From an uncultured Eubacteriales bacterium (GTDB taxonomy: Bacteria; Bacillota; Clostridia; Oscillospirales; Acutalibacteraceae), in NCBI GenBank assembly GCA_964475315.1, contig CAYYWE010000001.1, positions 3,210 through 31,978 on the forward strand: a stretch of 28,769 nt of DNA, in the 5' to 3' direction. The position numbers were made by a program, and so were the translations under genes. Below are positions 1 through 18,888 of this stretch, in pieces. Each line of letters opens with the position of its first letter. Position 1 is the stretch's first letter. The notes under the pieces were generated by a model. The model saw only the letters and a program-made list of their open reading frames with translations. It searched no databases and was not told where the DNA came from.

Positions 1-966
1 AAAATTATTTATATAAAATACACATATTGATAATATAATACTAAAAATTAGTATTGAAAATTTACGAATTTTTTCGCCCCAAATTTTTTTAATCCCTTCA
101 GATGCAAGCAATAAAAATAGCGAGGTTTTTAAGAATATTCCTGCCATCCAGATGCCCAAATATAATGAATCCAAATGTCTAAAAGCCCCAAATTTTCCTA
201 TACTTGTCGCTGTATATACTGGAAATAATTGTGTATTTACAAATTCACCCATTGTTCCTGTGATTAAAATTATCATAATTATAAAACTTAGATAAACTCC
301 TATGTCCCATAATATAATTCCGTTGAACTTTTTTTTTACATTTCCCGTGGCCATTGGTAACAAAACTCCAATTGCTACCAAACAAGAACTTTGTGAAACC
401 ATGTACAAAATTCCTTCTGCCACGGATTCGTAATTTTCATACATTAGTGGTTTAAAATTAATTTTTTCTACACTTGTTATTAACGAGCTAAACATAAATA
501 TTAGTGAAATTACCGTAGCTATTAATATAAAACTAGAAGTTCTTGACAGTGCTTCTAGACCTTTGTAGGCTCCATAACACGCAGAAAATAACATAAATAT
601 ACATAATGACTTTATTGACAACGGAGGGTTTATACAATTTGCTACGAAATTATCAAATATACTTAAAGTATGAAGTGTAATAATTAAAAAATATAAAATA
701 TATATTAGTATAAAAAAATATCCATATTTTCCCATTAAATCTCGTAAATTGTCAAAAATATTCATTTTTGGATCAAGTGTATATAATTTGTATATTGGTA
801 AGATTAATAAAAATGTAATGCTTAAAGATAAAATCGCTGATACCAAGTGATCCCAAATATCTGAATCTCCTATTAATAGAGTCCCGTATGTCATTGTAAC
901 GACCATTCGGCTCACAAATAACATTGAAAATATTTGTCCAACAGAAATACAGGGTCGTTTTTCCAT
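1..966 (-). CDS. gerKB: Spore germination receptor B subunit (GerAB/GerKB family, APC-fold membrane protein); 3' end runs off the window
   Basis: Missing from the ORF track because no stop lies in the window. Manual translation from ATG at 966 (AGGAG upstream) stays open to base 1: MEKRPCISVGQIFSMLFVSRMVVTMTYG...YKGLEALSRTS...QLFPVY...FRHLDSLYLGIWMAGIFLKTSLF. It is highly hydrophobic, has GerAB-type FP.Y and R.D...IW motifs, and lies directly downstream of gerKA. Confidence 0.85.
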   Translation of the reverse strand, partial: MEKRPCISVGQIFSMLFVSRMVVTMTYGTLLIGDSDIWDHLVSAILSLSITFLLILPIYKLYTLDPKMNIFDNLRDLMGKYGYFFILIYILYFLIITLHTLSIFDNFVANCINPPLSIKSLCIFMLFSACYGAYKGLEALSRTSSFILIATVISLIFMFSSLITSVEKINFKPLMYENYESVAEGILYMVSQSSCLVAIGVLLPMATGNVKKKFNGIILWDIGVYLSFIIMIILITGTMGEFVNTQLFPVYTATSIGKFGAFRHLDSLYLGIWMAGIFLKTSLFLLLASEGIKKIWGEKIRKFSILIFSIILSICVFYINNF

Positions 967-1007
967 AATTATTTTTTCTCCTAGCTATATATTTTTTAAA
1001 ATATTTA

Positions 1008-2561
1008 TTATTTTTTATTAATATTTCTGTCTTTTACTTCTGATCCTGGCAAATCTTGAACATGTATATTTTTTTTAGACAAAAAGCTCCAGCCACTGCG
1101 TACTAAAACATCCCGCATGGCAAAAATATTAAACGGTGATAACGGCGAAGTAAACGGCACTCCATAACTATTTTTTGCACAAATATTTACTAATACTAGC
1201 GTAAAAACTATCATAATTCCCCAAATTCCTAATAATCCTCCGGTTACTATAAATACAAATTTTAATATTGAAATCGGTTCGTACAAATTTGGAATTACGT
1301 ACGAAGAAATTGCCGTAAGCGCGACTACCATCAATGTTGGCGCGCCGATAAGCCCCGAGCTTACCGCTGTTTCACCTATTACCAGTGCCCCTACTATACT
1401 GACTGCGTGTCCTAATGGTCTAGGGATTCTAAGTCCAGCTTCACGCATTATTTCATATATCAGATGTATCAAAATCGTTTCAAACATTAGTGAAAATGGT
1501 GTTGTTCCAACCGCTAGTGCGATTTTTGTCAATATTGGTCCAGGCAAAATTTCCGGGTTAAATGTGCTTATTCCCACATATAATCCTGGTAACAAAGTTG
1601 ATAACATAAACGCAAGGTATTTTAACCATCTTGTGAAAGTTGCAAAATAAGTATGCATAGAATAGTCATCTAGGTGCTGAAAATATTCTATAAACAAGTA
1701 CGGAACTATCAGAACATTAGGTGTTCCGTCTATGATTAAAGCAATTCGACCCTCAGAAATTTTGCCGCAAACAGTATCAGGTCTCTCAGTCATCCCGACG
1801 CTACTAAACAAAGAAAAATCACCTTGGTCTTCCAAATACGGTATAATATATCCAGATTCCATTACAGATTCCAGGTTAATTTGCGCAAGTTTATATTTTA
1901 ATTTATTTAAAATATCTTGTGAAACCTTGTTTTTTAAATAACACAAACATATTGAAGTTTTACTCGTACTTCCAATTTGTGTTAATTCAAATCTCAAATC
2001 GGTGGTTTTAAGACGTCTTCTTATTAAAGTCATATTAATCATTAGTGGCTCAACAAAGCCCTCTCTTGAGCCACGTTGCATAATTTCTGTTGAAGGCTCA
2101 GTTATAGATCGAAAATTAAACCCTTGTACGCCAAGAGCTAACATGCTATCGCAACCATCCATAGCTAGTAGGGCGAACCCGGACATTATCATATTAAAAG
2201 CATCATCAAAATTTGAAATTTGTAATTGGTCCGGCGAAATTATAATATTATCACGTATATAATCATATTTTTCCTGATTCGTACTTCCCTGAATTTTGCT
2301 TTGCTCCTGAATAATTGGCTTCATAACACTGAGTGTCAGAGTATCTTTATTAACCATTCCTCCTATTGTAATCAAAGCGCTCTGGACATCTTTAATATTT
2401 AAATACTTAATAGACAAATCGGCTGTTTCTCCGAACTCTCTCTTAAAAAATTCTACGTTTTCGCACAAAGATCTTGAGAAAAACTTTTTGTCTTTTACAA
2501 TATTTTTTTTACTGTTTTTATTATAAATATACACATCCAAAAAGTGTTTCATATAACCCAT
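1008..2561 (-). CDS. gerKA: Spore germination receptor A subunit (GerA/GerKA family)
   Basis: GerA motifs RSITEPSTE..RGSREGFVE, EGRIALIIDGTP and EIMREAGLRIPRPLGHAVSIVGALVIGETAV. The ORF track starts at 2627; ATG 2561, with AGGAGG at 2580-2575, is the more likely start. Confidence 0.92.
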   Translation of the reverse strand: MGYMKHFLDVYIYNKNSKKNIVKDKKFFSRSLCENVEFFKREFGETADLSIKYLNIKDVQSALITIGGMVNKDTLTLSVMKPIIQEQSKIQGSTNQEKYDYIRDNIIISPDQLQISNFDDAFNMIMSGFALLAMDGCDSMLALGVQGFNFRSITEPSTEIMQRGSREGFVEPLMINMTLIRRRLKTTDLRFELTQIGSTSKTSICLCYLKNKVSQDILNKLKYKLAQINLESVMESGYIIPYLEDQGDFSLFSSVGMTERPDTVCGKISEGRIALIIDGTPNVLIVPYLFIEYFQHLDDYSMHTYFATFTRWLKYLAFMLSTLLPGLYVGISTFNPEILPGPILTKIALAVGTTPFSLMFETILIHLIYEIMREAGLRIPRPLGHAVSIVGALVIGETAVSSGLIGAPTLMVVALTAISSYVIPNLYEPISILKFVFIVTGGLLGIWGIMIVFTLVLVNICAKNSYGVPFTSPLSPFNIFAMRDVLVRSGWSFLSKKNIHVQDLPGSEVKDRNINKK

Positions 2562-2674
2562 AAATAGTCTAAAGCCTCCTGTTTGCTTTTTATTTTTATG
2601 TTTCACAGGAACTTTAAATTTATTCATGAAAATTAATTATTTCAAAACAAGTTTAACAATTTAGTTTACTCATT

Positions 2675-2860
2675 AGACTTCTTGTAAAATCAAGGATATA
2701 TTGTATAATAGAAGAGTAAAATATAAAAAACTACGGACCAAAAAATTCTGCAGGATAACAGGAGTAAAAATTAAAGCACGTGGCAATGCTGGAGTACTTG
2801 CGTGAGTATAGGACGCATGCGCATATAGCCGCAAGTTACGGAGTTCATGAGAACCAAACT
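2675..2860 (+). mobile_element. Left-end fragment of an IS5-family (ISL2 group) element with a degraded transposase N-terminus
   Basis: Starts with the terminal repeat AGACTTCTTGTAAAATCAAGG (identical to 3321-3301 on the minus strand). Broken frames read KNYG.., RITGVK.. and AMLEYLREYRTHAHIAASYGVHE, the HTH_Tnp_4-type segment. Cut off at 2860 by the next element. Confidence 0.82.
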
Positions 2861-3321
2861 AGACCTCTCGTGAAATCAAGACAAAAGCTCATAATTACAA
2901 ACAGCGGAGATTAAATTGTATCTAAAAACAAAGCGTTTTCTACGATTTCGATATTTTTCAAAAAGAATTCTAAAACACTTAACAAATACAATAGCGTATT
3001 TATTTTGTATTCTTTTACTTGAAATTTTGCTGTTATTGGCTTTATCTGATTTTGTAAGAGGATGTTTTTTTAGTTTTTGAATTTTTGTGAAATTTGTTAA
3101 TTCCTTTTTTCTTTCCGGAACAACAAAATTTCTAAAATAGTTCATCTTCCATTGATAGTTTAATTTTTTGACATGTTTTTTGCATACTTTTTGTTCAATA
3201 TTTCTTGTATGTTTTAATTTTTATTCCCGTTATCCTGTGGTTTTTTCAGATCCATAGTTTTTTATATTTTTATATGTCATTCCTCTATTATACCATACAT
3301 CCTTGATTTTACAAGAAGTCT
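2861..3321 (-). mobile_element. Internally deleted IS5-family (ISL2 group) element, 461 bp, with both terminal inverted repeats
   Basis: TIRs AGACCTCTCGTGAAATCAAG (2861-2880) and CCTTGATTTTACAAGAAGTCT (3301-3321). The N-terminal remnant from ATG 3280 (MTYKNIKNYGSEK / RITGIKIKTY / KLSMEDEL) is fused to the C-terminal remnant KKHPLTKSDKANNSKISSKR...FRILFEKYRNRRKRF..RYNLISAVCNYEL, typical of DDE_Tnp_4 ends. The catalytic core is missing. Confidence 0.88.
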
Positions 3322-7894: not shown

Positions 7895-7992
7895 AGATTT
7901 TTATACTCCTAAATTTTTTAATCTAATTTATTTTATTATATCACAAATATATTATTTTTTTCCGAATATTATGTGGTCATAATTTTTTCAAT

Positions 7993-8232
7993 AGACCTCT
8001 TGCAAAATCAAAAAAAGAGAACAAAAAACATCCCCTTACAGAATAAGACAAAGCTAATAACCATAAAATTTCCAGTGAAAAAGTCCAAAACAAACACACC
8101 ATTGCATTTACTAAACATTTTAGAATTCTTTCTGAAAAACGTTGACATCGCAAAAAACGCTTTGCTCTTAAGTTCAACTTAATCTCTGCCATTTTCAATT
8201 GTAAGCTTTTGTTTTGATTTTGTAGGAGGTCT
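7993..8232 (+). mobile_element. 240-bp MITE-like derivative of the same IS5/ISL2 element
   Basis: Inverted ends AGACCTCTTGCAAAATCAAAA (7993) and TTTTGATTTTGTAGGAGGTCT (ending 8232). The interior reads KKHPLTE*DKANNHKISSEKVQNKH...FRILSEKR*HRKKRFALKFNLISAIFNCKLLF*, the transposase C-terminus with two internal stops, homologous to 2861-3100. Confidence 0.88.
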
Positions 8233-8454
8233 GTTTAAAGCATCCCCAGTAGTTAAGAAAAAAGTAATGATAATTAATTTTTAAAATTTATAATCTCAAA
8301 AAGTTTTCCGGGATTAGTTTTTTTAGCAAATAAAATGTGTTTATTATATATATTTATAATTTTATTAATTTTGCATAATTTTTTTATTTCAAACAAAAAA
8401 ACACCAGCTAGATACAAAATGAGCACCTAACTGAAAAAAATATGATTTTTAATT

Positions 8455-9654
8455 TTATCTAGAGAGATAAAGAGCTATAGCTGTACGGTTTGGAAGCTTA
8501 AGAATAGTACCAGCAGTAAGTTTGTCTGTGACTTCAAGACCGTTGAAAGTTGAAATAGCAGTAGCATATTTGTTTTCTTTGTAGTAGGACATTGCTATAG
8601 AAGAAATTGTATCTCCATACTGAACTATATAATCTTCGTATTCCATGTCTAAACCTTTGGAGAGAGTTATATTAGCTGTATCATCGTCGCCGGATTGGTT
8701 ATCTATGTTTTCTATTGAGACATTTTTGTCACTGGTGTCTTCGCTGTTTGCGTTATATGAAGTATCTCCGATAGTTACGAGCGCACTAGAACTGGCGGAT
8801 TTAGTGTTTTCTGTAAGTTTAGAATAAGCAAGATAAAATACTCCCAAAATTAAAGCGCTACTAACTGCTGTTTTAGACAATTTTTGGATAATCGGTTTTC
8901 TGAGTTCATAGTGATATTTTATATAAGATTTCCAGGAACTAGTTTGAGAGAGTTTTTCAGCTTTTTTTAATTCTACTATTAGCTCAGGTATAGATTCAAA
9001 CACCAGATTTTTGCATTTATCTAAAATTATATGAAGAGGTTTATTAAACCCCATAGAACATTCCGGTTCAAGAATAGTATAAATAATATCATGAATATTT
9101 TTAAAAATTAATTTTTTACTAGTTTTAGAGTCAGAATATTTACTTAAATTTTTTAAATTTCCCTGAAATAACACGTCTTTATCTTTGTTTAGTACAATAT
9201 TTTCGAGCTCTGTAAGACAACCTATAATTTGGTTTGGAAGGGAGTTCATATTGTAAATTCTAATTAAAATATATTCAAGTATAGAGCATCTTTCGTTAAA
9301 ATGACTGTCATTAAAATTTTTATCAAAAAAAGTTTTTATATTTTCATACTGATAGTATTTAAAAACAGCATAATAATTATTATTTTCTATAAAAAAATTT
9401 TTATATTCATGAGGTTTATTACTAGATTCGTAAGCTGAAAACAAAAGCTCTAAAATACTTGTATTATTTTTATCGTATTGGAATTGATTTAAAATATATA
9501 AATTGTCAAGTGTATTTTCGTTTTGATAAGCTACGAGTGTACTATAATTACTAATATTATTATTAATATTAGTATTTTTTTGGCTGTTATTATTAATATT
9601 ATTATATAAATTAGCTATTATAGTATAATTCGAATTTTTGTTTAAATTAGACAT
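8455..9654 (-). CDS. Single-pass membrane protein with C-terminal LysM domain and N-terminal putative degenerate protein-kinase-like domain
   Basis: LysM: YIVQYGDTISSIA..YY......I..FNGL....L.AG..LKLP. TM: AVSSALILGVFYLAY. The N-terminal pattern YAVFKYY / ERCSILEYIL / LENIVLNKD.DV resembles the kinase hinge, alphaE and catalytic-loop region (inference). ATG 9654 is preferred over GTG 9666, which overlaps the RBS-like AAGGCGTG. Confidence 0.8.
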   Translation of the reverse strand: MSNLNKNSNYTIIANLYNNINNNSQKNTNINNNISNYSTLVAYQNENTLDNLYILNQFQYDKNNTSILELLFSAYESSNKPHEYKNFFIENNNYYAVFKYYQYENIKTFFDKNFNDSHFNERCSILEYILIRIYNMNSLPNQIIGCLTELENIVLNKDKDVLFQGNLKNLSKYSDSKTSKKLIFKNIHDIIYTILEPECSMGFNKPLHIILDKCKNLVFESIPELIVELKKAEKLSQTSSWKSYIKYHYELRKPIIQKLSKTAVSSALILGVFYLAYSKLTENTKSASSSALVTIGDTSYNANSEDTSDKNVSIENIDNQSGDDDTANITLSKGLDMEYEDYIVQYGDTISSIAMSYYKENKYATAISTFNGLEVTDKLTAGTILKLPNRTAIALYLSR

Positions 9655-9740
9655 ATATTTTTTCACGCCTTTTTTATGAAATTTGTAAAAATTTATATAA
9701 TTTTATAAAAAACTGAACAAATAAAACATATTTATTGCAC

Positions 9741-9769
9741 TTGACTAGATATTTATATGATAATATACT
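9741..9769 (+). promoter_or_regulatory. Putative sigma-A promoter of the HAMP/MORN operon
   Basis: TTGACT (9741-9746) - 17 bp - TATACT (9764-9769). Confidence 0.5.
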
Positions 9770-9785
9770 AGAATAATTAAGTCAA
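9757..9785 (-). promoter_or_regulatory. Putative sigma-A promoter of the LysM gene, overlapping the opposite promoter
   Basis: Minus strand TTGACT (9785-9780) - 17 bp - TATCAT (9762-9757). Confidence 0.45.
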
Positions 9786-9870
9786 TAAAAACTCAAAAAA
9801 ATATAATTACTAATATTTTTTGTAAAATTTGTGTAATTTTGTTTTTTAAAAAATATTTATGTGAGGGGAT

Positions 9871-12843
9871 TTGGTCGTGAAAAAAAACTCAAATAATAAT
9901 AAAAAAAATAAAAATAGTAATATTAAAGAAAATTTCAAGAAAAATCTTGGTGACAGTGCTGTTGGAATTACAAAATTACTGGCTAACAAAAAATTTATAT
10001 ACGTGTTACTAGGAATATTATTATTAAGTTTGGGTTTTGTAGCACAGTATTTTTTGAATAGACCAAATTTTGGTACTTTTTTGGGTTCTGATATGGACTT
10101 ATCTAACAATGTTTATATTTTAGGTGTTAATGAAGAAAATAATGAGTACAAAATTACAAAAGTGTCGCAAAGTGGAGCAACTAAGTTTCAACTAAAGTTA
10201 GAAAAATCTAATGACAAATACGAAAATGTATATAAAAATTTAGAAGTAGACTCTAAAGGTAATATTTATATTGTAAAACAACAGAAAAAAATTGATGCGG
10301 TAGTTTCAGATGCCAGTATGTACCCAACTACAAATGAAAAAATTTTAATGTATGATCATAACGGAATATATATAAAAGAAATAGCTTCTATAGATTTCAC
10401 ACAAAGCGCTAGTCCACCAGTAGAACCGTATATACAAAAAATACAAATAGTAGACCAAAATATGTTTATTATAGCTCGAGAAGGTAATTATTATGATATT
10501 ATTTCGGCTAATCCGTTGTTAGATGAAGCTCCTAAAAAAATTAAGTCTTTTGAAATTGTTCCAGATGGTGCTTTAACAAATCAAAATTATCAATGGGTAA
10601 GTGATATGAGTGTATTATCTAGCGGAAGAATTTTTTATTCGACTTTAAATGGTAAATTATATGGTACTAATAACCAGGGGGTATTTGAAGATTATTCTAG
10701 TGTTATGAAAACGAATAATTTTTTAATCTCAGATATGAGCATAGATCCCAATGATGATTTATATTTTACAGATACTGTAACAGGTAGGTTTTATAAATTA
10801 AATACAAAAAGTATTTCTTTACAGACTTTATATAATCTAGATAGTCCGTTATATGAAAACACAAACTTGATTTTTAGAGATATCAAAAAAGTAAAATGTT
10901 TAGACACAGGGGATTTTTACGGAAATTCTAAGTCTTATGAAAAAGTGTTTCATGTCAGATTTGGGAGTAATAATTATTTAGTTGGGAATTTAAGAGGTTC
11001 GTTTTTCCCGTGGGGCCTAATTATTATGATACTAGTAATTTTATTGGTAATTGGAATTTTTTACGGTATTAAATTTTTGGCGAAATTAGAAATAAAAAGA
11101 ATACCGTTGGTAGTAAGAATATTAAGTTTATTTTTACCGGTGTTTATTATTTCTATGATAGTTTTAGTCGGAGTTAATACTCTGGATGGTGTTAAAGAAT
11201 ACATGAGTTTGTTAAAAAGCGAACAAGAACGTGGAGCTAAAACTGCGTCAGACTTAATATCAGGTAGTGATTTTGCAAAATTAAATCACGTATCAGGCTA
11301 TATGAACTCAGATTATATAAAATTAAAAAATTCTTTGCAAAAAAGTCATAGTGATATTTATTCTAAAATTGGAGATAGAAGTGATTATTTAGTTACTTAT
11401 GTAGAAAATTACGGTAGTTTATATACTAGTATTAATACTAAATATGACGTAAATTCAGAAAGTTATAACAGATTAAAATATACAAACCCAGATATGGTTC
11501 CTAATGGTTACTGTCTAATAGATTATGTTTTAGAGCAAGATGAAGTTGAAAAATTATATAATATCTGGAATAAATTTGTCTCTTCAGATAATACAGAATA
11601 TTACATGGACGTAGAATTTAAAGACGTATACGGAGATTTAACTGCCTCTTTTGCTCCTATAAAAGACTCTAATGGGCAAGTAGTCGGACTAGTAGGGAAC
11701 TTTCTAGACGAAAAAATTCACCAAACTAGAGAATTTTGGGAAATTTTAAAACATGCTTCGGCTCTTATATTAATAATTACTATATTAATTATATTTTATG
11801 TATGTTTTATAATAAAATACGCTTTGAGACCGTTAAAAAAAATAGAAAAATCTATAAAAACTACAGAAACTGGTACTTGGGATACAAGAATAAAATTAAA
11901 ATCTAAAGATGAATTTGCTGACATAGCTGAAGCGTTTAATATTATGTCAGAAAAAATTCAGAGATATACTTCGAATTTAATAAAATTAAATAAAGAGTAT
12001 ATAAGATATATTCCTGATAAATTATTTAAATTAATAGACAAAGATAAAATCACCCAAGTTAATTTACATGATAATAAATCTTGTTTGCTAAATATAGTAC
12101 AGGTAAATTTTAATATTTCATGTAATGATAAATTTGATTTTAATAATCAAATAGATGTATTTAGAGCTATAAGCGAAAGTTATGAAAAATTATTTGACGT
12201 AGTAGAACAAAATCACGGTATAGTACATTCTTTTGACGGTCTAGGACTAATAGCTTTGTTCCCAGATAGTCCAGATGATGCTTTTCTAGCTTCGTTACAA
12301 TTTAAAGAGCTTGAAATTAATAAATTTGTAAAAGATCAAATGCACATATTATTAGGCTCAGGTTATGTACTAACTGGTATTTCTGGAGATTCTGAAAGAC
12401 GTGGTGTGATATTAATTTCAGACGAACTTATGCAATTATATAATATGAATTCTAGATTAAGTATTTTGGACATAAACCACGTTGCAACAGAAAGTATTAT
12501 TAAAAATATAGAAAATATAAAAAATAAAGGGACTCTTTCTTTTAGATATATCGGTCGTGCTGAAAATACTACTGGTGGAGAGTTTACTAATATTTACCAA
12601 ATAATAGAAAATAATAATAAATATAAAAAAGATTTGTATATTTCTACTTTTGAAATATTTGAAAAAGCTGTTAAGTTATATTTAAATAGTGAATTTGAAG
12701 AAGCACGTAAGTTATTTGCAAGTGTAATAAGAACTAACGAAAATGACAAAGTTAGTATGAGATATTTATTATTATGTGACGAAGAACTTAATAAAATAAA
12801 TCAAATTGGTATGACTAAAAATTTCACCGGTTATATTATATAA
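9871..12843 (+). CDS. Four-TM receptor: beta-propeller-like ectodomain, second ectodomain, HAMP, degenerate class III nucleotidyl cyclase domain, TPR-like tail
   Basis: TM segments near aa 43-63, 380-402, 414-437 and 630-652. Blade-like repeats EVDSKGNIYIV / DMSVLSSGRIFYS / DMSIDPNDDLYFTD. HAMP: RPLKKI...DTRI.LKSKDEFADIAEAFNIMSEKI. Cyclase-like YIRYIP..LF.L...GLIALFP..PDDA..ISDE; tail FEKAVKLY...F.EARKLF..V...N.ND.VS.RYL..C. Confidence 0.82.
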   Translation: MVVKKNSNNNKKNKNSNIKENFKKNLGDSAVGITKLLANKKFIYVLLGILLLSLGFVAQYFLNRPNFGTFLGSDMDLSNNVYILGVNEENNEYKITKVSQSGATKFQLKLEKSNDKYENVYKNLEVDSKGNIYIVKQQKKIDAVVSDASMYPTTNEKILMYDHNGIYIKEIASIDFTQSASPPVEPYIQKIQIVDQNMFIIAREGNYYDIISANPLLDEAPKKIKSFEIVPDGALTNQNYQWVSDMSVLSSGRIFYSTLNGKLYGTNNQGVFEDYSSVMKTNNFLISDMSIDPNDDLYFTDTVTGRFYKLNTKSISLQTLYNLDSPLYENTNLIFRDIKKVKCLDTGDFYGNSKSYEKVFHVRFGSNNYLVGNLRGSFFPWGLIIMILVILLVIGIFYGIKFLAKLEIKRIPLVVRILSLFLPVFIISMIVLVGVNTLDGVKEYMSLLKSEQERGAKTASDLISGSDFAKLNHVSGYMNSDYIKLKNSLQKSHSDIYSKIGDRSDYLVTYVENYGSLYTSINTKYDVNSESYNRLKYTNPDMVPNGYCLIDYVLEQDEVEKLYNIWNKFVSSDNTEYYMDVEFKDVYGDLTASFAPIKDSNGQVVGLVGNFLDEKIHQTREFWEILKHASALILIITILIIFYVCFIIKYALRPLKKIEKSIKTTETGTWDTRIKLKSKDEFADIAEAFNIMSEKIQRYTSNLIKLNKEYIRYIPDKLFKLIDKDKITQVNLHDNKSCLLNIVQVNFNISCNDKFDFNNQIDVFRAISESYEKLFDVVEQNHGIVHSFDGLGLIALFPDSPDDAFLASLQFKELEINKFVKDQMHILLGSGYVLTGISGDSERRGVILISDELMQLYNMNSRLSILDINHVATESIIKNIENIKNKGTLSFRYIGRAENTTGGEFTNIYQIIENNNKYKKDLYISTFEIFEKAVKLYLNSEFEEARKLFASVIRTNENDKVSMRYLLLCDEELNKINQIGMTKNFTGYII

Positions 12844-12897
12844 ATATATTTTTAAAATATTATAAAAATATAATTTAGAATAGGACGGATATAATTT

Positions 12898-14406
12898 ATG
12901 TCAGTAATTTCAAATATATTTTCAAGAGTTACTACTGGTATACAAACACAGTTAACTTCTATATCGACTTTGATGGTAAAAGCAAAAAATTTTGGCAATA
13001 GAGCGGCTGCATATGCGCAACAAAAGATACAAGCTCTAGCCCAAAATTTAACCCGTAACCCTAGGTCCAAAGAAGACTACGTAAAAGTATTTGGTTTATA
13101 TATTTCTAAAAAATTTACTACTATTTCTATTGTAGTAGTAGGAGTTTTAGGATATTTATTAATATATCAGCTTATACCATGGGCTGAAGGTAAAGTTTGG
13201 ACTACTAATTTAAAAATAGATACTATTAAATATACTACTTTTAGTGGAAAATCTAGAGTTTATAATCAAAATGACCAGTTAATATATCAAGGCAATTTGA
13301 CTAACGGAAAACCTGATGGCCCTGGTAAGCAATATTTTCTTAACGGAAGATTAAAATATAATGGAAATTTTCAGGCCGGAAAATATCACGGTGAAGGTGA
13401 ATTATTTGGTGAAGACGGAATAATTATATATTCTGGTATGTTCGAAAACAATAATTATCAAGGCGAAGGAAAATTATATAATAACATAGGTAAAGTAATA
13501 TATGTTGGTTCTTTTGAAGTTGGACAAAGATCTGGCAAGGGTATAGAATATGATCCAGATACTATGTTAAGAAAATACTATGGAGATTGGATTAATGATG
13601 TAAAAAATGGCTATGGCGTAGAATATGAAGAAGACGGTACTAGTGTTAAATACGAGGGTAACTTTAAAGACGGCTCATACGGTGGCGAAGGTATGTTATA
13701 TGTAAACAGCGTACTAAAATACGCTGGAAGTTTTGCCAACGGATTATATAACGGCACGGGAAGTTTGTATAATCTCGATACAGGTACTCTAATTTATGCC
13801 GGTGAATTCAAAGACGGTCTGTATGATGGCGCTGGTATATTATACGACCAGGATACTTCGACAATATTATATAACGGTACTTTCTCTAAAGGTAAAAAAC
13901 AAGGCACTGGTACGTCTTATGACAAGTTGGGCTCAACTGAGTTTACCGGTGACTTCAGAGGGGACAGCATAGATTATATAAAATATTTAGGTAGGTCTCC
14001 TGAAGACGTAACTGCTGAGTTTGGTCAAGAAACATACAAAACTGAAGTAGACAATAAATTAATTATTACCTATTTGGGTCTAGACGTATCAGTAGTGTTT
14101 AAAATAGACGAAGAATTAGGCACATATGTTTGCGAAAAAATGATCTTGGGAACTAAAAAAGAATTTATGGGTCTTGGCGCCCAGAGTACAGCCGTAGAAA
14201 GACGTGAAGTTATGGGCGAACCGTTTTCATCTATAGACTTTAGTTGTTCGGATTACTATAAAACTGTATTTTCTAATTTAGCTATTAATATTAATAACAC
14301 CAATGCTATACCATGCGATAAATACATGCTTGATAAGTATTTTATAAGATTTTATTTTAACGACGGCAGAACAGAACTAAAATGTATTGAAATTTGTTCT
14401 TTATAA
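12898..14406 (+). CDS. Membrane-anchored MORN-repeat protein
   Basis: About nine consecutive Y.G.F..G...G.G..Y repeats (YQGNLTNGKPDGPGKQY to YNGTFSKGKKQGTGTSY) after one TM segment (TISIVVVGVLGYLLIYQLI); AGGACGGA RBS-like sequence upstream. Confidence 0.9.
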   Translation: MSVISNIFSRVTTGIQTQLTSISTLMVKAKNFGNRAAAYAQQKIQALAQNLTRNPRSKEDYVKVFGLYISKKFTTISIVVVGVLGYLLIYQLIPWAEGKVWTTNLKIDTIKYTTFSGKSRVYNQNDQLIYQGNLTNGKPDGPGKQYFLNGRLKYNGNFQAGKYHGEGELFGEDGIIIYSGMFENNNYQGEGKLYNNIGKVIYVGSFEVGQRSGKGIEYDPDTMLRKYYGDWINDVKNGYGVEYEEDGTSVKYEGNFKDGSYGGEGMLYVNSVLKYAGSFANGLYNGTGSLYNLDTGTLIYAGEFKDGLYDGAGILYDQDTSTILYNGTFSKGKKQGTGTSYDKLGSTEFTGDFRGDSIDYIKYLGRSPEDVTAEFGQETYKTEVDNKLIITYLGLDVSVVFKIDEELGTYVCEKMILGTKKEFMGLGAQSTAVERREVMGEPFSSIDFSCSDYYKTVFSNLAININNTNAIPCDKYMLDKYFIRFYFNDGRTELKCIEICSL

Positions 14407-14472
14407 TCTAGTTTTTGTAAAATTATACTAAATTATAAAAAAATATAATAAACTTCAAAATAACATGTAAAA

Positions 14473-14707
14473 AAGAACTAACAAATTTCACAAAAATTCA
14501 AAACTCCAAAAAAAAAACAAAAAAACGAAGCTAATAACCATAAAATTTCAAGCGAAAAAGTCCAAAATAAGCACGCTATTTCATCTAGCGTTTTAGAATT
14601 CTTTCTAAAAAATATATCGAAATCATAGAAAACGCTTTGCTTTTAGGTTTAATTTAATCTCTGTTATTTGTAGTTATGAGCTTTTGTCTTGATTTTGCAA
14701 GAGGCCT
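14473..14707 (+). mobile_element. Right-end fragment of the same IS5/ISL2 element
   Basis: Homologous to 2861-3110 (reverse complement) and 8020-8232: ACAAATTTCACAAAAATTCAAAA...AAAACGCTTTG...GAGCTTTTGTCTTGATTTTGCAAGAGGCCT. Right TIR at 14688-14707; no clear left TIR. Confidence 0.85.
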
Positions 14708-14850
14708 AATATTGTTTATCGCTGTTTGTGCGGCTTGCCCCGACTCTACTTTGTTTCATTTGTAGCTCTAATTTTGACCTATCTTTTTGTTATGTGCCCT
14801 GATGCTTTTCAAAAACTGTAATTATTCCAAACAAAAAATTATAAAAGAGC

Positions 14851-15988: not shown

Positions 15989-18703
15989 TTATGGCATCCA
16001 TTGTTTTGCTTCATTTTCATCAATGTGAAATCTGCCACATTTAACAACGTTTTTAATATAACTTTCGACCTCTTTTAATGCCTTGTCGTTATCTCCGCTT
16101 AAATTAATACAGCTATTTTCAGCGTTTTGATACGGATATTTATCACTATAACAAATTCTTCCTTTGCCATCAGTTAAGACATAGTACGGGCTACTACCCA
16201 TGTAAATCATTCTTTTATGATTGTATTGAAATTTAAGCCCTGACTCAATAATCTCTGAAACTGTCTGAGGGCCATTTTTAATACCATATTTATTTTTCCA
16301 CTCAGTATTATCTTTATTTTTGATAAAATCATTTCTAATACTATCAGATGTAGACATACCTGAAATACAGTTATTGTCAATAATCCATAGTTTTTTGAAC
16401 TTCTCCAAATTTTCTATAATTTTGTCTTGAGCAATAAAATAAGTTTTTAAATACCACAAATTTCTAAAAAGTTTACAAGTGTTTTTAGAGTGATTTTTTA
16501 AATTTTCTAGTGAACTTTTTTCTATTTTAAAATTCGAATCACTGGACCTAATAATAGTATCAATTTTTTTTTTATTATTAGCCCCTGCTAAATTACTAAC
16601 AGGTCTGAATATATTATTTATAACTTCGTTATAAATATCTGTTAATTCCGATAATTTAATTTTTTCTATATTTTTAACAGCTGTACATACATCATTTATT
16701 TTTTTACGTATAGAGCTTACTTTTTTACAAATATCACTATATTCTTTAGAACTTATTTTTTCTTGAATGCTTAAAAAGTTTTCTTCAAATTTTTTTAAAT
16801 ATTCTTGAATTTTATCGCAAACATGGTTGCGTGTATTATAATTTATAATATCCTCTGGTTTACTATTTTTTGGAGTTTTTAATATGTCCTCTAAAACGCC
16901 ATCAATATAAGTGTTAGCATCCGTTTCGACACTATCCAATTTGTCCCCAAAACTTTTTATTTTTTCTAGTAATTTCTCATATGATTCAATAAATTTTTTG
17001 GAGCAGTCATTTATTAACTTTTCAGTATCATCTGATAATTTTTCGGTATCCCTAAACTCTGTATTTTTTATATTGTTAGATATATTTTTAATTTTACTTA
17101 TTGAGTTCTTCAAGTTTTCTCTACTTTGTAAGTTGTTTGGCTTAATCTCTCTTAAATTTTCCTTAATATCATTAAAAATTTCTTTAATACTATTAAAAGA
17201 TCCTAAATTTTCTGTTTTTATAGTACTAGAAATAAAAAGAGATCTTTTTATAACATCATGTACGAAACCCTGTAAGTCTACACCATCACTAACCATGCCA
17301 AGCCACTTTGTTTTACCATACTTATTACTACAAATATCGTCATAAAAGCTAGTTCCAGTTAAGTTTCTCATAACACTACTAACTTGATCAATAGCCATTT
17401 TGTTTTTTATTAGATCTTCAAATTGTTTTTTTATCAACTCTATTTTTTCTTTAAATTGTTCAAAAAAAAATTTTATATTATAAATATTTTTATCATCAAT
17501 TTTTTCGATTTTTAAATTTTTTACACTATCAAAATCTGAAAAGTTTAAGCTTTTAGCATCTAAAGAAAAACTAGAACTATCACTTAAATTTTCTATTTCT
17601 TTACACAACTTTGATAAAAAATCATATATATCTTTGTGGTATTTGTCTAAAGATTTTTGACCATTTTGTATAATCTTACATAACTCTTTTAGCTTAATTT
17701 TTATTTCACCAATGGTGAATTTTTTTAGATCTATACTATCCAACAAATTTTTTAAATTTTCATTCATACTAAATAATCCATTAGTTTTTTCAAGAATTTC
17801 TAATTTTTTTTCTTCAATTTTTTTAAAATTTTCATCGTCTTCTAACAATTTATCGATCGTTTTCATTATATCATTATAACTAGTTTCCCAACTGTTTATA
17901 TTTGTATTGATTTTTGATTTAGAAAAAGTCAAAAACTCTGAAGAACGAACCTTTATGAAAAAAGTGTCAATACAATCTTTTATTTCTTCTTTATAAGTCA
18001 TACATGTTTCTAAATCAGCGTTGTCGTCTAGTACATCTATTTTTTTGAAGTTAATTGTTTGTTCGATTTTGTTTAAAAAACCTATTATGCCACTACTACG
18101 CATATCATTAAATAAATTATACAATATTTTCATCATATCTCTATAATTTCCTTTTGATTTTAGATTTTGCAAATTATATTTATTAAATATTTTAATTATT
18201 TTATTTAAAACATTGTCTTGTTGCGTAGCTTTGTTATGAATATTACCCATTAAAGTTTCAAGAGACTTTTTTAAACTTTCTACTGAATTTTTTACATCTT
18301 TGCCCGCAATTAAAGCATATTTAGGAGCTTTGTTACAACTATTTAAAAAAGCAACTACCGATTTATAAAAATTATTTAATCTAACATATTCGTCCTTTTT
18401 AGAGTTTGGTTCATATGATAGACTTAGACTATTTATAGCGGCGTAGCTTTCGCTGTAATTAAATTTATTTCGATTATTAAGAAATTTATCCATGTTGGTT
18501 TTGAATTTTGCTAAAGTGCACATAATTTTTTGTTCAACATTTTCAATATTTTTAAAATTTAAATCTTTGTAACTGTCTATTTCTTTTTTTAAATTATTAA
18601 TTTCTTTAATAAGTTCAATTCTTTCTTGATTTTTCTCTTTTCCACCTGTGCCTATAAAAGAACCTACAACAGCTTGTTTGATTTTTTCGCTTAGCTTACT
18701 CAT
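15989..18703 (-). CDS. Large helical / coiled-coil-rich hypothetical protein (about 904 aa)
   Basis: 2.7-kb open frame; ATG 18703 follows AAAGGGTG (the ORF track's GTG 18712 lies in this RBS). K/N/I/E-rich, with no signal peptide, TM segment or recognisable motif. Confidence 0.75.
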   Translation of the reverse strand: MSKLSEKIKQAVVGSFIGTGGKEKNQERIELIKEINNLKKEIDSYKDLNFKNIENVEQKIMCTLAKFKTNMDKFLNNRNKFNYSESYAAINSLSLSYEPNSKKDEYVRLNNFYKSVVAFLNSCNKAPKYALIAGKDVKNSVESLKKSLETLMGNIHNKATQQDNVLNKIIKIFNKYNLQNLKSKGNYRDMMKILYNLFNDMRSSGIIGFLNKIEQTINFKKIDVLDDNADLETCMTYKEEIKDCIDTFFIKVRSSEFLTFSKSKINTNINSWETSYNDIMKTIDKLLEDDENFKKIEEKKLEILEKTNGLFSMNENLKNLLDSIDLKKFTIGEIKIKLKELCKIIQNGQKSLDKYHKDIYDFLSKLCKEIENLSDSSSFSLDAKSLNFSDFDSVKNLKIEKIDDKNIYNIKFFFEQFKEKIELIKKQFEDLIKNKMAIDQVSSVMRNLTGTSFYDDICSNKYGKTKWLGMVSDGVDLQGFVHDVIKRSLFISSTIKTENLGSFNSIKEIFNDIKENLREIKPNNLQSRENLKNSISKIKNISNNIKNTEFRDTEKLSDDTEKLINDCSKKFIESYEKLLEKIKSFGDKLDSVETDANTYIDGVLEDILKTPKNSKPEDIINYNTRNHVCDKIQEYLKKFEENFLSIQEKISSKEYSDICKKVSSIRKKINDVCTAVKNIEKIKLSELTDIYNEVINNIFRPVSNLAGANNKKKIDTIIRSSDSNFKIEKSSLENLKNHSKNTCKLFRNLWYLKTYFIAQDKIIENLEKFKKLWIIDNNCISGMSTSDSIRNDFIKNKDNTEWKNKYGIKNGPQTVSEIIESGLKFQYNHKRMIYMGSSPYYVLTDGKGRICYSDKYPYQNAENSCINLSGDNDKALKEVESYIKNVVKCGRFHIDENEAKQWMP

Positions 18704-18888
18704 AAAAAACACCCTTTCTGTGATATATTTACAAATAAAAATAATTTTATTCGATTATTTTAGTATTATAAAACAAAAACGTCAAGCCATTGAAAATTAT
18801 AAATAATTTTATTTTCGTACTTGAAATACACAAACATAAGTTATAAAATTAAAGAATTGATATTTTAAAATTTTAGGAGGAGATATTT

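Follow-up and report, generated by a model that had tools for sequence, protein, structure and literature searches.

A 28,769-nucleotide stretch of DNA from an uncultured Eubacteriales bacterium of the family Acutalibacteraceae (assembly GCA_964475315.1, contig CAYYWE010000001.1, positions 3,210 to 31,978 of the forward strand; hereafter the window) carries three genes for membrane proteins, here termed the trio, which on balance probably constitute an envelope cassette for the contractile injection system (CIS, a machine resembling a phage tail) of this bacterium, with a role in docking or triggering the machine, and which are detached from the CIS operon in this genus. The association of the trio with the CIS can be held with high confidence and, once it is granted, a docking or trigger role appears reasonably probable from genome comparison. 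The trio comprises P0001, with a pseudokinase, a transmembrane (TM) segment and a LysM domain (its gene is abbreviated PK), the receptor P0002 and the MORN protein P0003, and is laid out as follows.

8455..9666, minus strand: P0001, pseudokinase-TM-LysM protein, 403 amino acids (aa) as listed (open reading frame call, family alignment and AlphaFold2 model).
9871..12843, plus strand: P0002, receptor with four TM segments, a propeller, a Cache-like domain, HAMP, a pseudo-cyclase and a helical tail, 990 aa as listed.
12898..14406, plus strand: P0003, single-pass TM-MORN protein with its N-terminus inside (open reading frame call, Pfam, hydropathy and Lys/Arg bias).

All three open reading frames (ORFs) are present at these coordinates without internal stops, in agreement with an initial annotation of this DNA that had described three intact, membrane-anchored genes. 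The same annotation saw in them a free signalling module or a scaffold for an envelope machine. The latter survives as an idea, and the self-standing system does not, as the larger locus to which the trio belongs is a CIS operon, from which this cassette has been split off in the genus.

The association is seen in the gene order of relatives. Two loci with P0001 homologues of 34-36% identity (L024 and L026) hold the same trio inside a CIS operon, the first half of which encodes Phage_GPD, Phage_base_V, gp25, two Baseplate_J-like proteins of 1003 and 714 aa, Tail_P2_I and a 596-aa protein designated h596. The second half encodes the LysM-pseudokinase, the HAMP receptor and the MORN protein, together with Cu_amine_oxidN1, Pvc16_N (the cap), a 242-aa protein, DUF4280 (PAAR-like) and a WHD-AAA ATPase. 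In CIS operons the baseplate genes lie on one side of the trio and the genes for the cap, the PAAR-like protein and the AAA ATPase on the other, which is the position of the tail-fibre slot, and h596 always precedes the cassette among the loci examined.

Within a family sample of 201 genomes from 185 genera, 14 genomes carry a member of the pseudokinase family, and h596 is found at an identity of at least 48% in exactly those 14. The recurrent co-occurrence of the three genes envisaged in the initial annotation is borne out by the genomes among these that lie outside the genus, all of which (12/12) contain the complete trio. The trio directly abuts h596 in G142, G146, G169, G174, G192 and G219, is intact and apart from h596 in the genus of the window and three related genera, and has its genes dispersed in G145 and in G060, the latter a single 1.3-Mb contig; the embedded trio also occurs in six small-genome genera. 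In all three of the larger-genome family members with a distant h596 (26-33%), h596 is followed on one strand by genes for a PK-like protein, a HAMP-pseudocyclase (not found in G207) and a MORN protein. In the endosymbiont Ca. Paraimprobicoccus trichonymphae (L023; AP027925.1), with which G060 agrees in coordinates, the LysM-pseudokinase gene is isolated, at ~340 kb from those for HAMP and MORN and ~660 kb from h596, and several gene-free gaps around it might hold pseudogenes.

The same arrangement extends beyond the family. A sample of 401 genomes from 30 families of the order was searched with a receptor profile, which matched 10 genomes in four other families, and all seven of the regions fetched from these (GC 0.31-0.66) are CIS operons with the same cassette. 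In two genomes (G414 and G384) the receptor gene is displaced by a few genes, to a place beside DUF4280 and AAA, and in a third (G305) the PK gene was not detected in the cassette-bearing CIS operon. It was this profile search that reached other families; a pattern scan of genome contigs based on the receptor alignment returned only close relatives, of at least 39% identity. A profile search of 1.8 billion representative proteins with the pseudokinase family added dozens of full-length or PK-TM relatives, and six of their loci were looked up. Two of these (L089 and L091) are complete operons on a single strand, with overlapping stops and starts in L091; L088 has its PK-LysM gene 4.5 kb upstream of genes for sheath and tube; L090 has a PK gene that converges on h596; and the stretch available for L087 is too short to show a CIS context. 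At L028 (P0156), PK and the receptor gene are divergent, and the DNA downstream of PK contains no CIS gene. Full-length trio matches by profile or pairwise comparison comprise L024, L026, L034-L039, L089, L091 and L092-L098. A receptor homologue of 41% identity is also encoded on a 2.5-kb contig binned as a 'Holosporaceae bacterium' (L083; JAISYW010000014.1), probably a mis-binned contig of a termite-gut Oscillospirales symbiont.

This distribution bears on the possibility that the three genes form an autonomous module for envelope signalling or scaffolding that has no relation to the CIS and only happens to reside within CIS loci in some genomes. Such a module might be recognized in the separation of the trio from the sheath and baseplate genes in the window and the genus, where it is yet intact, and in its own divergent promoter region and the terminator-like hairpin that follows P0001. 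Every lineage outside the derived clade, however, has the trio at a fixed position in the CIS operon; none of the approximately 600 genomes sampled carries the trio without this type of CIS; and some members of the genus keep the trio contiguous with the cap, PAAR-like and AAA genes. An autonomous module is accordingly quite improbable. Unless trio and machine are functionally tied, a fixed position across genomes of GC 0.28-0.66 and proteins of 25-60% identity would be difficult to account for, as would the survival of both partners through translocation in ~1-Mb genomes.

The assembly that holds the window (G000) is 0.88 Mb in 151 contigs and 91% complete, and no fewer than four of these contigs share its CIS genes (loci L030-L033). 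Contig C15 bears the hub, spike, gp25, two Baseplate_J, Tail_P2_I and h596 genes, C26 those for sheath and tube, C38 DUF4280 and C50 the AAA ATPase. The h596 protein of this genome is 605 aa in length (L030:318-2135, minus strand), compared with 596 aa in L024 and L026. The family has no Pfam assignment, and its N-terminal residues R11, N12, Y14, G17, K18 and L19 are invariant across homologues of 24-58% identity, one of which has a weak Big_2 match near its C-terminus.

Within the genus, the trio is full-length and identically arranged in 22-23 of 24 species, at 50-70% identity, and its detachment from the sheath and baseplate half is common to the genus; in 16 other families of the order, each represented by one genome, no full-length match was found. 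The relatives that carry homologues are metagenome-assembled genomes (MAGs) from the gut of goat, human, mouse and termite, under the labels Clostridia, Oscillospiraceae or Acutalibacteraceae. In several genomes of the genus and clade, the pseudokinase gene and the HAMP, MORN, CuAmOx, Pvc16_N, h242, DUF4280 and AAA genes form a contiguous series that is co-oriented except for the first. This contiguity with cap, spike-tip and ATPase genes identifies the detached trio as the second half of the CIS operon, a half that is split again after the MORN gene in the window and its nearest relatives. In one congener (G007, 92% complete) trio and CIS are missing together.

Several observations weigh against the trio as a CIS envelope cassette. 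No CIS gene adjoins it in the window, where it is located between a MurJ-like gene and an LCP gene, outside of the CIS operon, and in G003 and G006 a distance of 110-120 kb separates it from the half of that operon that runs from sheath to h596. A search of the 91%-complete assembly of G000 did not find the Pvc16_N cap and Cu_amine_oxidN1 genes, which in relatives come after the MORN gene, and hence the CIS here may be incomplete or only partly assembled. A CIS is present with no detectable trio in G021 (same genus, 87% complete), an assembly that, like that of G007, is fragmented. The genomes that carry the module are related to one another, and thus the counts of co-occurrence do not represent independent events; and the proposed docking or trigger role is argued from genome comparison, not from physical contact.

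Some of these points would also fit a decaying, non-functional leftover of a broken CIS operon in this genome: the operon is fragmented, MITE-like repeats lie on both flanks of the trio, the cap and Cu_amine_oxidN1 genes were not found, and in one congener (G017) the receptor gene has stops in its propeller part. Decay is nevertheless very improbable, as the three ORFs are intact and their full-length orthologues in nearly all species of the genus share many invariant residues. An intact and conserved trio in genomes of ~1 Mb that are shedding dispensable genes indicates purifying selection. The G017 receptor gene itself (G017:C13:1784-4695) contains three TAG and one TAA codons in the propeller part, with the C-terminal 680 aa open, and may be a pseudogene or reflect an assembly error.

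The proteins themselves are consistent with an envelope cassette: the order of their domains is compatible with the membrane topology, and the catalytic residues of both enzyme-like folds are lost. The domain reading of the initial annotation, which named a pseudokinase-TM-LysM protein, a receptor with a propeller, a second ectodomain, HAMP and a pseudo-cyclase, and a MORN protein, proved right in its main points by Pfam and by AlphaFold2 and Foldseek, and NCBIfam added to it only a generic HAMP-sensor and LysM resemblance. P0001 likely begins at the ATG at 9654 (M5), where its homologues begin, and has the following parts.

8932..9639, minus strand: cytoplasmic protein-kinase-fold domain, aa 10-245 (Foldseek, VIA-align and conservation).
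8809..8883, minus strand: single TM helix, aa ~262-286 (model helix 245-286, hydropathy, and five Lys/Arg before vs one after).
8461..8640, minus strand: LysM domain, predicted extracytoplasmic, aa 343-402 (Pfam PF01476 and LysM matches in the Protein Data Bank (PDB) with the family profile).

The AlphaFold2 model of P0001, built with 40 homologues (mean predicted local distance difference test score, pLDDT, of 80), displays a bilobal protein-kinase fold over aa 10-241. Foldseek matched the model to 220 PDB structures at E<=1e-3, all of them kinases or pseudokinases (e.g. Stk1, PknI and the PAN3 pseudokinase), and VIA-align placed aa 10-241 at Z-scores of 13-14.3 against BRAF, KSR, PknI and Stk1. 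A canonical kinase requires the aspartates of its HRD and DFG motifs. In the 40-sequence P0001 family, aa 1-260 contain neither an invariant or near-invariant Asp nor a Gly-rich loop (GxGxxG); with no conserved Asp, the HRD and DFG aspartates are absent, and the P0001 domain is a catalytically dead pseudokinase. Two residues are invariant in the family alignment, N60 and N156, and would occupy the positions of the β3 Lys and the catalytic-loop Asn, respectively, according to a mapping by secondary structure and not a residue-level alignment. A PDB search with the sequence profile of the pseudokinase family returned LysM matches only and aligned no kinase, for which reason the mapping of the catalytic motifs is founded on fold and conservation.

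The TM helix of P0001 is followed by an invariant I299-G300-x3-Y304 motif, a disordered linker and the LysM domain, matched by Pfam at aa 346-392 (E 2.6e-6; 27.7 bits against a cut-off of 20.9). The TM helix and the charge bias about it suggest that the LysM domain is extracytoplasmic. The PK-like proteins of the outgroups, only 284-303 aa in length, end shortly past the TM helix without a LysM domain, which makes LysM a later addition.

The receptor P0002 was called in the database as a protein of 988 aa (P0004) that starts two codons later, at the GTG at 9877, and a Shine-Dalgarno-like GAGGGGA motif before this codon marks it as the likely start. Its AlphaFold2 model (41 sequences, pLDDT 82) and hydropathy give the order TM1, propeller, TM2/TM3, Cache/PAS-like domain, TM4, HAMP, linker, cyclase fold and helical tail, with TM segments by hydropathy at aa 382-400, 417-435 and 630-648, the last being TM4.

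10075..10983, plus strand: ectodomain 1, six-bladed β-propeller, aa 69-371 (AlphaFold2 strands and Foldseek).
11188..11709, plus strand: ectodomain 2, Cache/PAS-like, aa ~440-613, between TM3 and TM4 (AlphaFold2 model; WalK-like match 9a5d).
11806..11961, plus strand: HAMP, aa 646-697 (Pfam PF00672, E 7.5e-10).
12073..12603, plus strand: class III cyclase-homology domain, degenerate, aa 735-911 (BLASTP, Foldseek and alignment).
12619..12807, plus strand: C-terminal helical, TPR-like tail, aa 917-979, common to the active-type cyclase P0064.

Foldseek related the propeller to virginiamycin B lyase, Pizza6 and the NHL domain of TRIM71. The HAMP domain, which directly follows TM4, scored 39.4 bits against a cut-off of 25. 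Its neighbour on the C-terminal side adopts the fold of class III cyclases: aa 697-974 align by BLASTP with P0064, a protein bearing PF00211 (E 3e-21), and Foldseek matched the domain to OaPAC, bPAC, CyaB, Cya2 and Rv1625c, with target-normalised TM-scores of ~0.7 against CyaB, Cya2, Rv1625c and OaPAC, while the PF00211 model itself remained below threshold on P0002. The initial annotation had cited the degenerate GGDEF of PelD as a precedent; such a domain was rejected for P0002, in which neither Pfam nor NCBIfam matched GGDEF and Foldseek gave the class III cyclase fold.

Alignment of P0002 with P0064 reveals the replacement of each catalytic motif, FSDIRRF by NIVQVNF, IGDAIM by DGLGLI and AVNLASR by LMQLYNM. 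Both metal-binding Asp residues, the transition-state Asn and the Arg are replaced in P0002 and in every relative aligned, the outgroups included. Many relatives carry an Asp one residue past the second canonical position (FDGLDAV), where P0002 has a Gly. The domain is thus predicted to be catalytically dead, and synthesis of cyclic AMP or cyclic GMP is not expected. The view of the initial annotation that both enzyme-like domains look inactive therefore stands. A scan of the 91%-complete assembly with PF00211 gave no match, and complementation of the dead half-site by a second cyclase is consequently unlikely, no other cyclase gene having been found in the genome. The linker between HAMP and the cyclase fold resembles the motif before the catalytic domain of P0064, which we take to be the 'cyclase-transducer element'.

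The third protein, P0003, is a MORN protein (Pfam MORN, E 2.6e-15), with eight units of the pattern YxGxxxxGxxxGxG and one further Pfam unit (~9 in total) between aa 130 and 338, and its Atlas neighbours are Bacillota MORN proteins. A TM helix spans aa 75-93 and is preceded by a Lys/Arg-rich N-terminus (11 Lys/Arg vs two Asp/Glu), a charge bias that suggests that the MORN array lies outside of the membrane. Neither Pfam nor Atlas gave an assignment for the C-terminal domain of ~150 residues (aa 350-502).

From these features a mechanism may be proposed in which the three proteins would form a complex in the cytoplasmic membrane, tied to the cell wall by the LysM domain, and in relatives perhaps likewise by the Cu_amine_oxidN1 protein. 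The MORN array, the propeller and the Cache-like domain would face outward and could bind ligands from the wall, a partner cell or the host. HAMP would then pass a conformational change to the pseudo-cyclase dimer and the pseudokinase, and these two would present a docking or switching surface for the baseplate, probably by way of peripheral baseplate proteins such as h596. An external cue might in this manner bring the machine into place at the envelope and permit or set off its firing. A complex prediction for h596 with the pseudokinase domain (score 0.20, mark 0.32), a single run, is neutral on binding. Taken to its full extent, the proposal would be that Oscillospirales, including the tiny-genome symbionts associated with protists, possess a membrane-docked CIS like that of the type VI secretion system (T6SS) within a single-membrane, thick-walled cell, with firing gated by a ligand-sensing complex built of pseudoenzymes; this larger picture is tentative and rather doubtful.

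The same wall-binding parts, LysM and the neighbouring Cu_amine_oxidN1 of relatives, would also suit a cassette that serves the CIS in export or release, by opening or marking a passage through the thick wall or by controlling lysis so that particles leave as extracellular CIS (eCIS). Such a role would account for the genomic association equally well, and the system of this clade has been published as an 'extracellular' CIS of subtype IIb, in a report that leaves the membrane cassette unmentioned (bioRxiv 10.1101/2025.07.29.667580). Export or release is nonetheless unlikely, as the trio has no hydrolase, holin or channel-like domain by Pfam or NCBIfam, and a ligand-sensing HAMP receptor suggests control by a signal and not a passive conduit.

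The docking or trigger reading finds its closest parallels in two described proteins. Contact between a CIS and the envelope of Gram-positive cells is a largely open matter, with only CisA of Streptomyces and one putative haloarchaeal anchor described. CisA (SCO4242) of S. coelicolor, which belongs to an eCIS of subtype IId, is a bitopic protein encoded immediately after the baseplate genes, where conventional eCIS have their tail-fibre genes, and needed for firing; it is conserved with its CIS subtype and predicted to contact a baseplate protein (PMC12237407). P0001 and CisA are alike in position and topology only, each being a membrane protein in the tail-fibre slot with a cytoplasmic N-terminal part, one TM segment and an extracytoplasmic C-terminal domain. 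CisA, however, has an unstructured N-terminus and an ectodomain like those of substrate-binding proteins and is found in an actinomycete, whereas the present cassette consists of three proteins in Clostridia. The haloarchaeal putative anchor Hbor_38620, with six TM segments and a cytoplasmic domain of ~150 residues, is present in correlation with a T6SS-like, membrane-docked mode (PMC11566945). Like the trio, this conserved membrane protein accompanies a single CIS clade, and does so in a single-membrane cell, but it is archaeal and lacks sensor or pseudoenzyme domains, and is likened to the trio by role and not by homology.

Other systems share single elements with the trio. P0002 has the TM receptor, HAMP, linker, cyclase fold and helical tail of the HAMP-linked class III adenylyl cyclases (Rv3645-type; CyaB, Cya2, Rv1625c and OaPAC), and differs from them in the replacement of all catalytic residues throughout its family. 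In the T6SS of Pseudomonas aeruginosa, PpkA/TagQRST provides a membrane kinase-type sensor with an extracytoplasmic domain that governs the place and time of firing of a contractile machine. The kinase PpkA is active and belongs to a diderm cell, whereas here the kinase fold is dead and signalling would proceed by conformation or contact. EssB/YukC, a membrane pseudokinase of the type VIIb secretion system, is a structural part of a Gram-positive secretion machine (bioRxiv 10.1101/2020.05.09.085852) and resembles P0001 in its cytoplasmic pseudokinase, single TM segment and extracellular domain; the extracellular part of P0001, however, is a LysM domain, or nearly nothing in the outgroups, and the partner machine is a CIS. 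The Pfam YukC/EssB model did not match P0001 at E<=1, and no type VII secretion genes were seen in ~30 neighbourhoods. Links to pel-like exopolysaccharide, type VIIb secretion or sporulation loci, as the initial annotation had suggested, were found in none of the neighbourhoods examined. One report describes a HAMP-only Cache receptor that acts through a Ser/Thr kinase (10.64898/2026.05.25.727664), a precedent for the coupling of HAMP to a kinase fold.

A literature search pairing contractile injection with MORN, LysM, HAMP, pseudokinases or adenylate cyclases turned up no account of the cassette, and the eCIS surveys checked do not mention MORN, cyclase or TM accessory genes. The term 'undescribed' used in the initial annotation can consequently be kept for the envelope cassette within the literature searched, the CIS of the clade having already been reported; what is added here is the detached, LysM-bearing form of this cassette in a reduced-genome clade. 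The small-genome, low-GC Acutalibacteraceae concerned include intracellular symbionts and putative energy parasites of termite flagellates (PMC10579323), as well as MAGs associated with rumen ciliates, and relatives of the clade live in the rumen and in the gut of goat, mouse and human. If the proposal is correct, pseudoenzymes would here make up a trigger complex through which a signal gates a contractile injection machine. The module is in addition a clean instance of pseudokinase and pseudo-cyclase domains taken on as structural or allosteric parts. A cassette fixed in the tail-fibre slot across at least five Oscillospirales families offers concrete candidates for the docking or trigger apparatus, and its retention in ~1-Mb genomes, even after the break-up of the operon, argues that machine and module are central to the lifestyle of these bacteria.

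The layout of the window adds detail to the trio and its surroundings.

9667..9870, strand not assigned: divergent intergenic region between P0001 and P0002, with back-to-back promoter-like hexamers.
7986..8239, strand not assigned: left MITE-like repeat, outside of the module, ~250 bp with 34-nt terminal inverted repeats.
14469..14716, strand not assigned: right MITE-like repeat, a copy of the same ~250-bp repeat in direct orientation to the left one.

The gap between the divergent P0001 and P0002 is 204 bp, or 198-222 bp from the likelier starts, in keeping with the ~200-bp divergent promoter region of the initial annotation. Promoter-like hexamers occur back to back at 9741-9769 (plus strand) and 9785-9757 (minus strand), at a frequency not above chance in AT-rich DNA. 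The stop of P0002 and the start of P0003 are 54 bp apart, and the two genes are probably co-transcribed. A terminator-like hairpin lies 3' of P0001. An Rfam scan of the window found no RNA families.

The surroundings of the trio are ordinary chromosome, with GerA, a spore-germination permease, a gyrB/parE-like gene and a MurJ/Polysacc_synt-type flippase on one side, and an LCP (LytR_cpsA_psr) gene, a 907-aa ORF and then rseP, ispG, polC, rimP and nusA on the other. The flanks, which had been taken for insertion sequence (IS) relics, are non-coding MITE-like repeats of ~250 bp with 34-nt terminal inverted repeats and not transposase remnants, and small ORFs on one copy gave no Pfam match. A third, inverted copy is located at 2852-3070, and the 0.88-Mb assembly contains 15 or more matches to the repeat, of which several lie at the ends of contigs. 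These repeats may drive local rearrangement and assembly fragmentation, and their presence on the flanks fits the frequent local rearrangement around the trio in relatives.

A few further observations concern the remainder of the window. Nested inverted repeats (2675-2729 and 3267-3321) surround the inverted MITE-like copy. Beside the LCP gene, the intact 907-aa ORF (15989-18712, minus strand) received no assignment from Pfam, NCBIfam-type or Atlas comparison, its Atlas neighbours being low-scoring, low-complexity and eukaryotic. At the other end (1-2627, minus strand), the GerA and spore-germination permease genes are kept in a genome of ~1 Mb, within a clade that includes intracellular symbionts, and suggest that spore germination capacity has been kept there.

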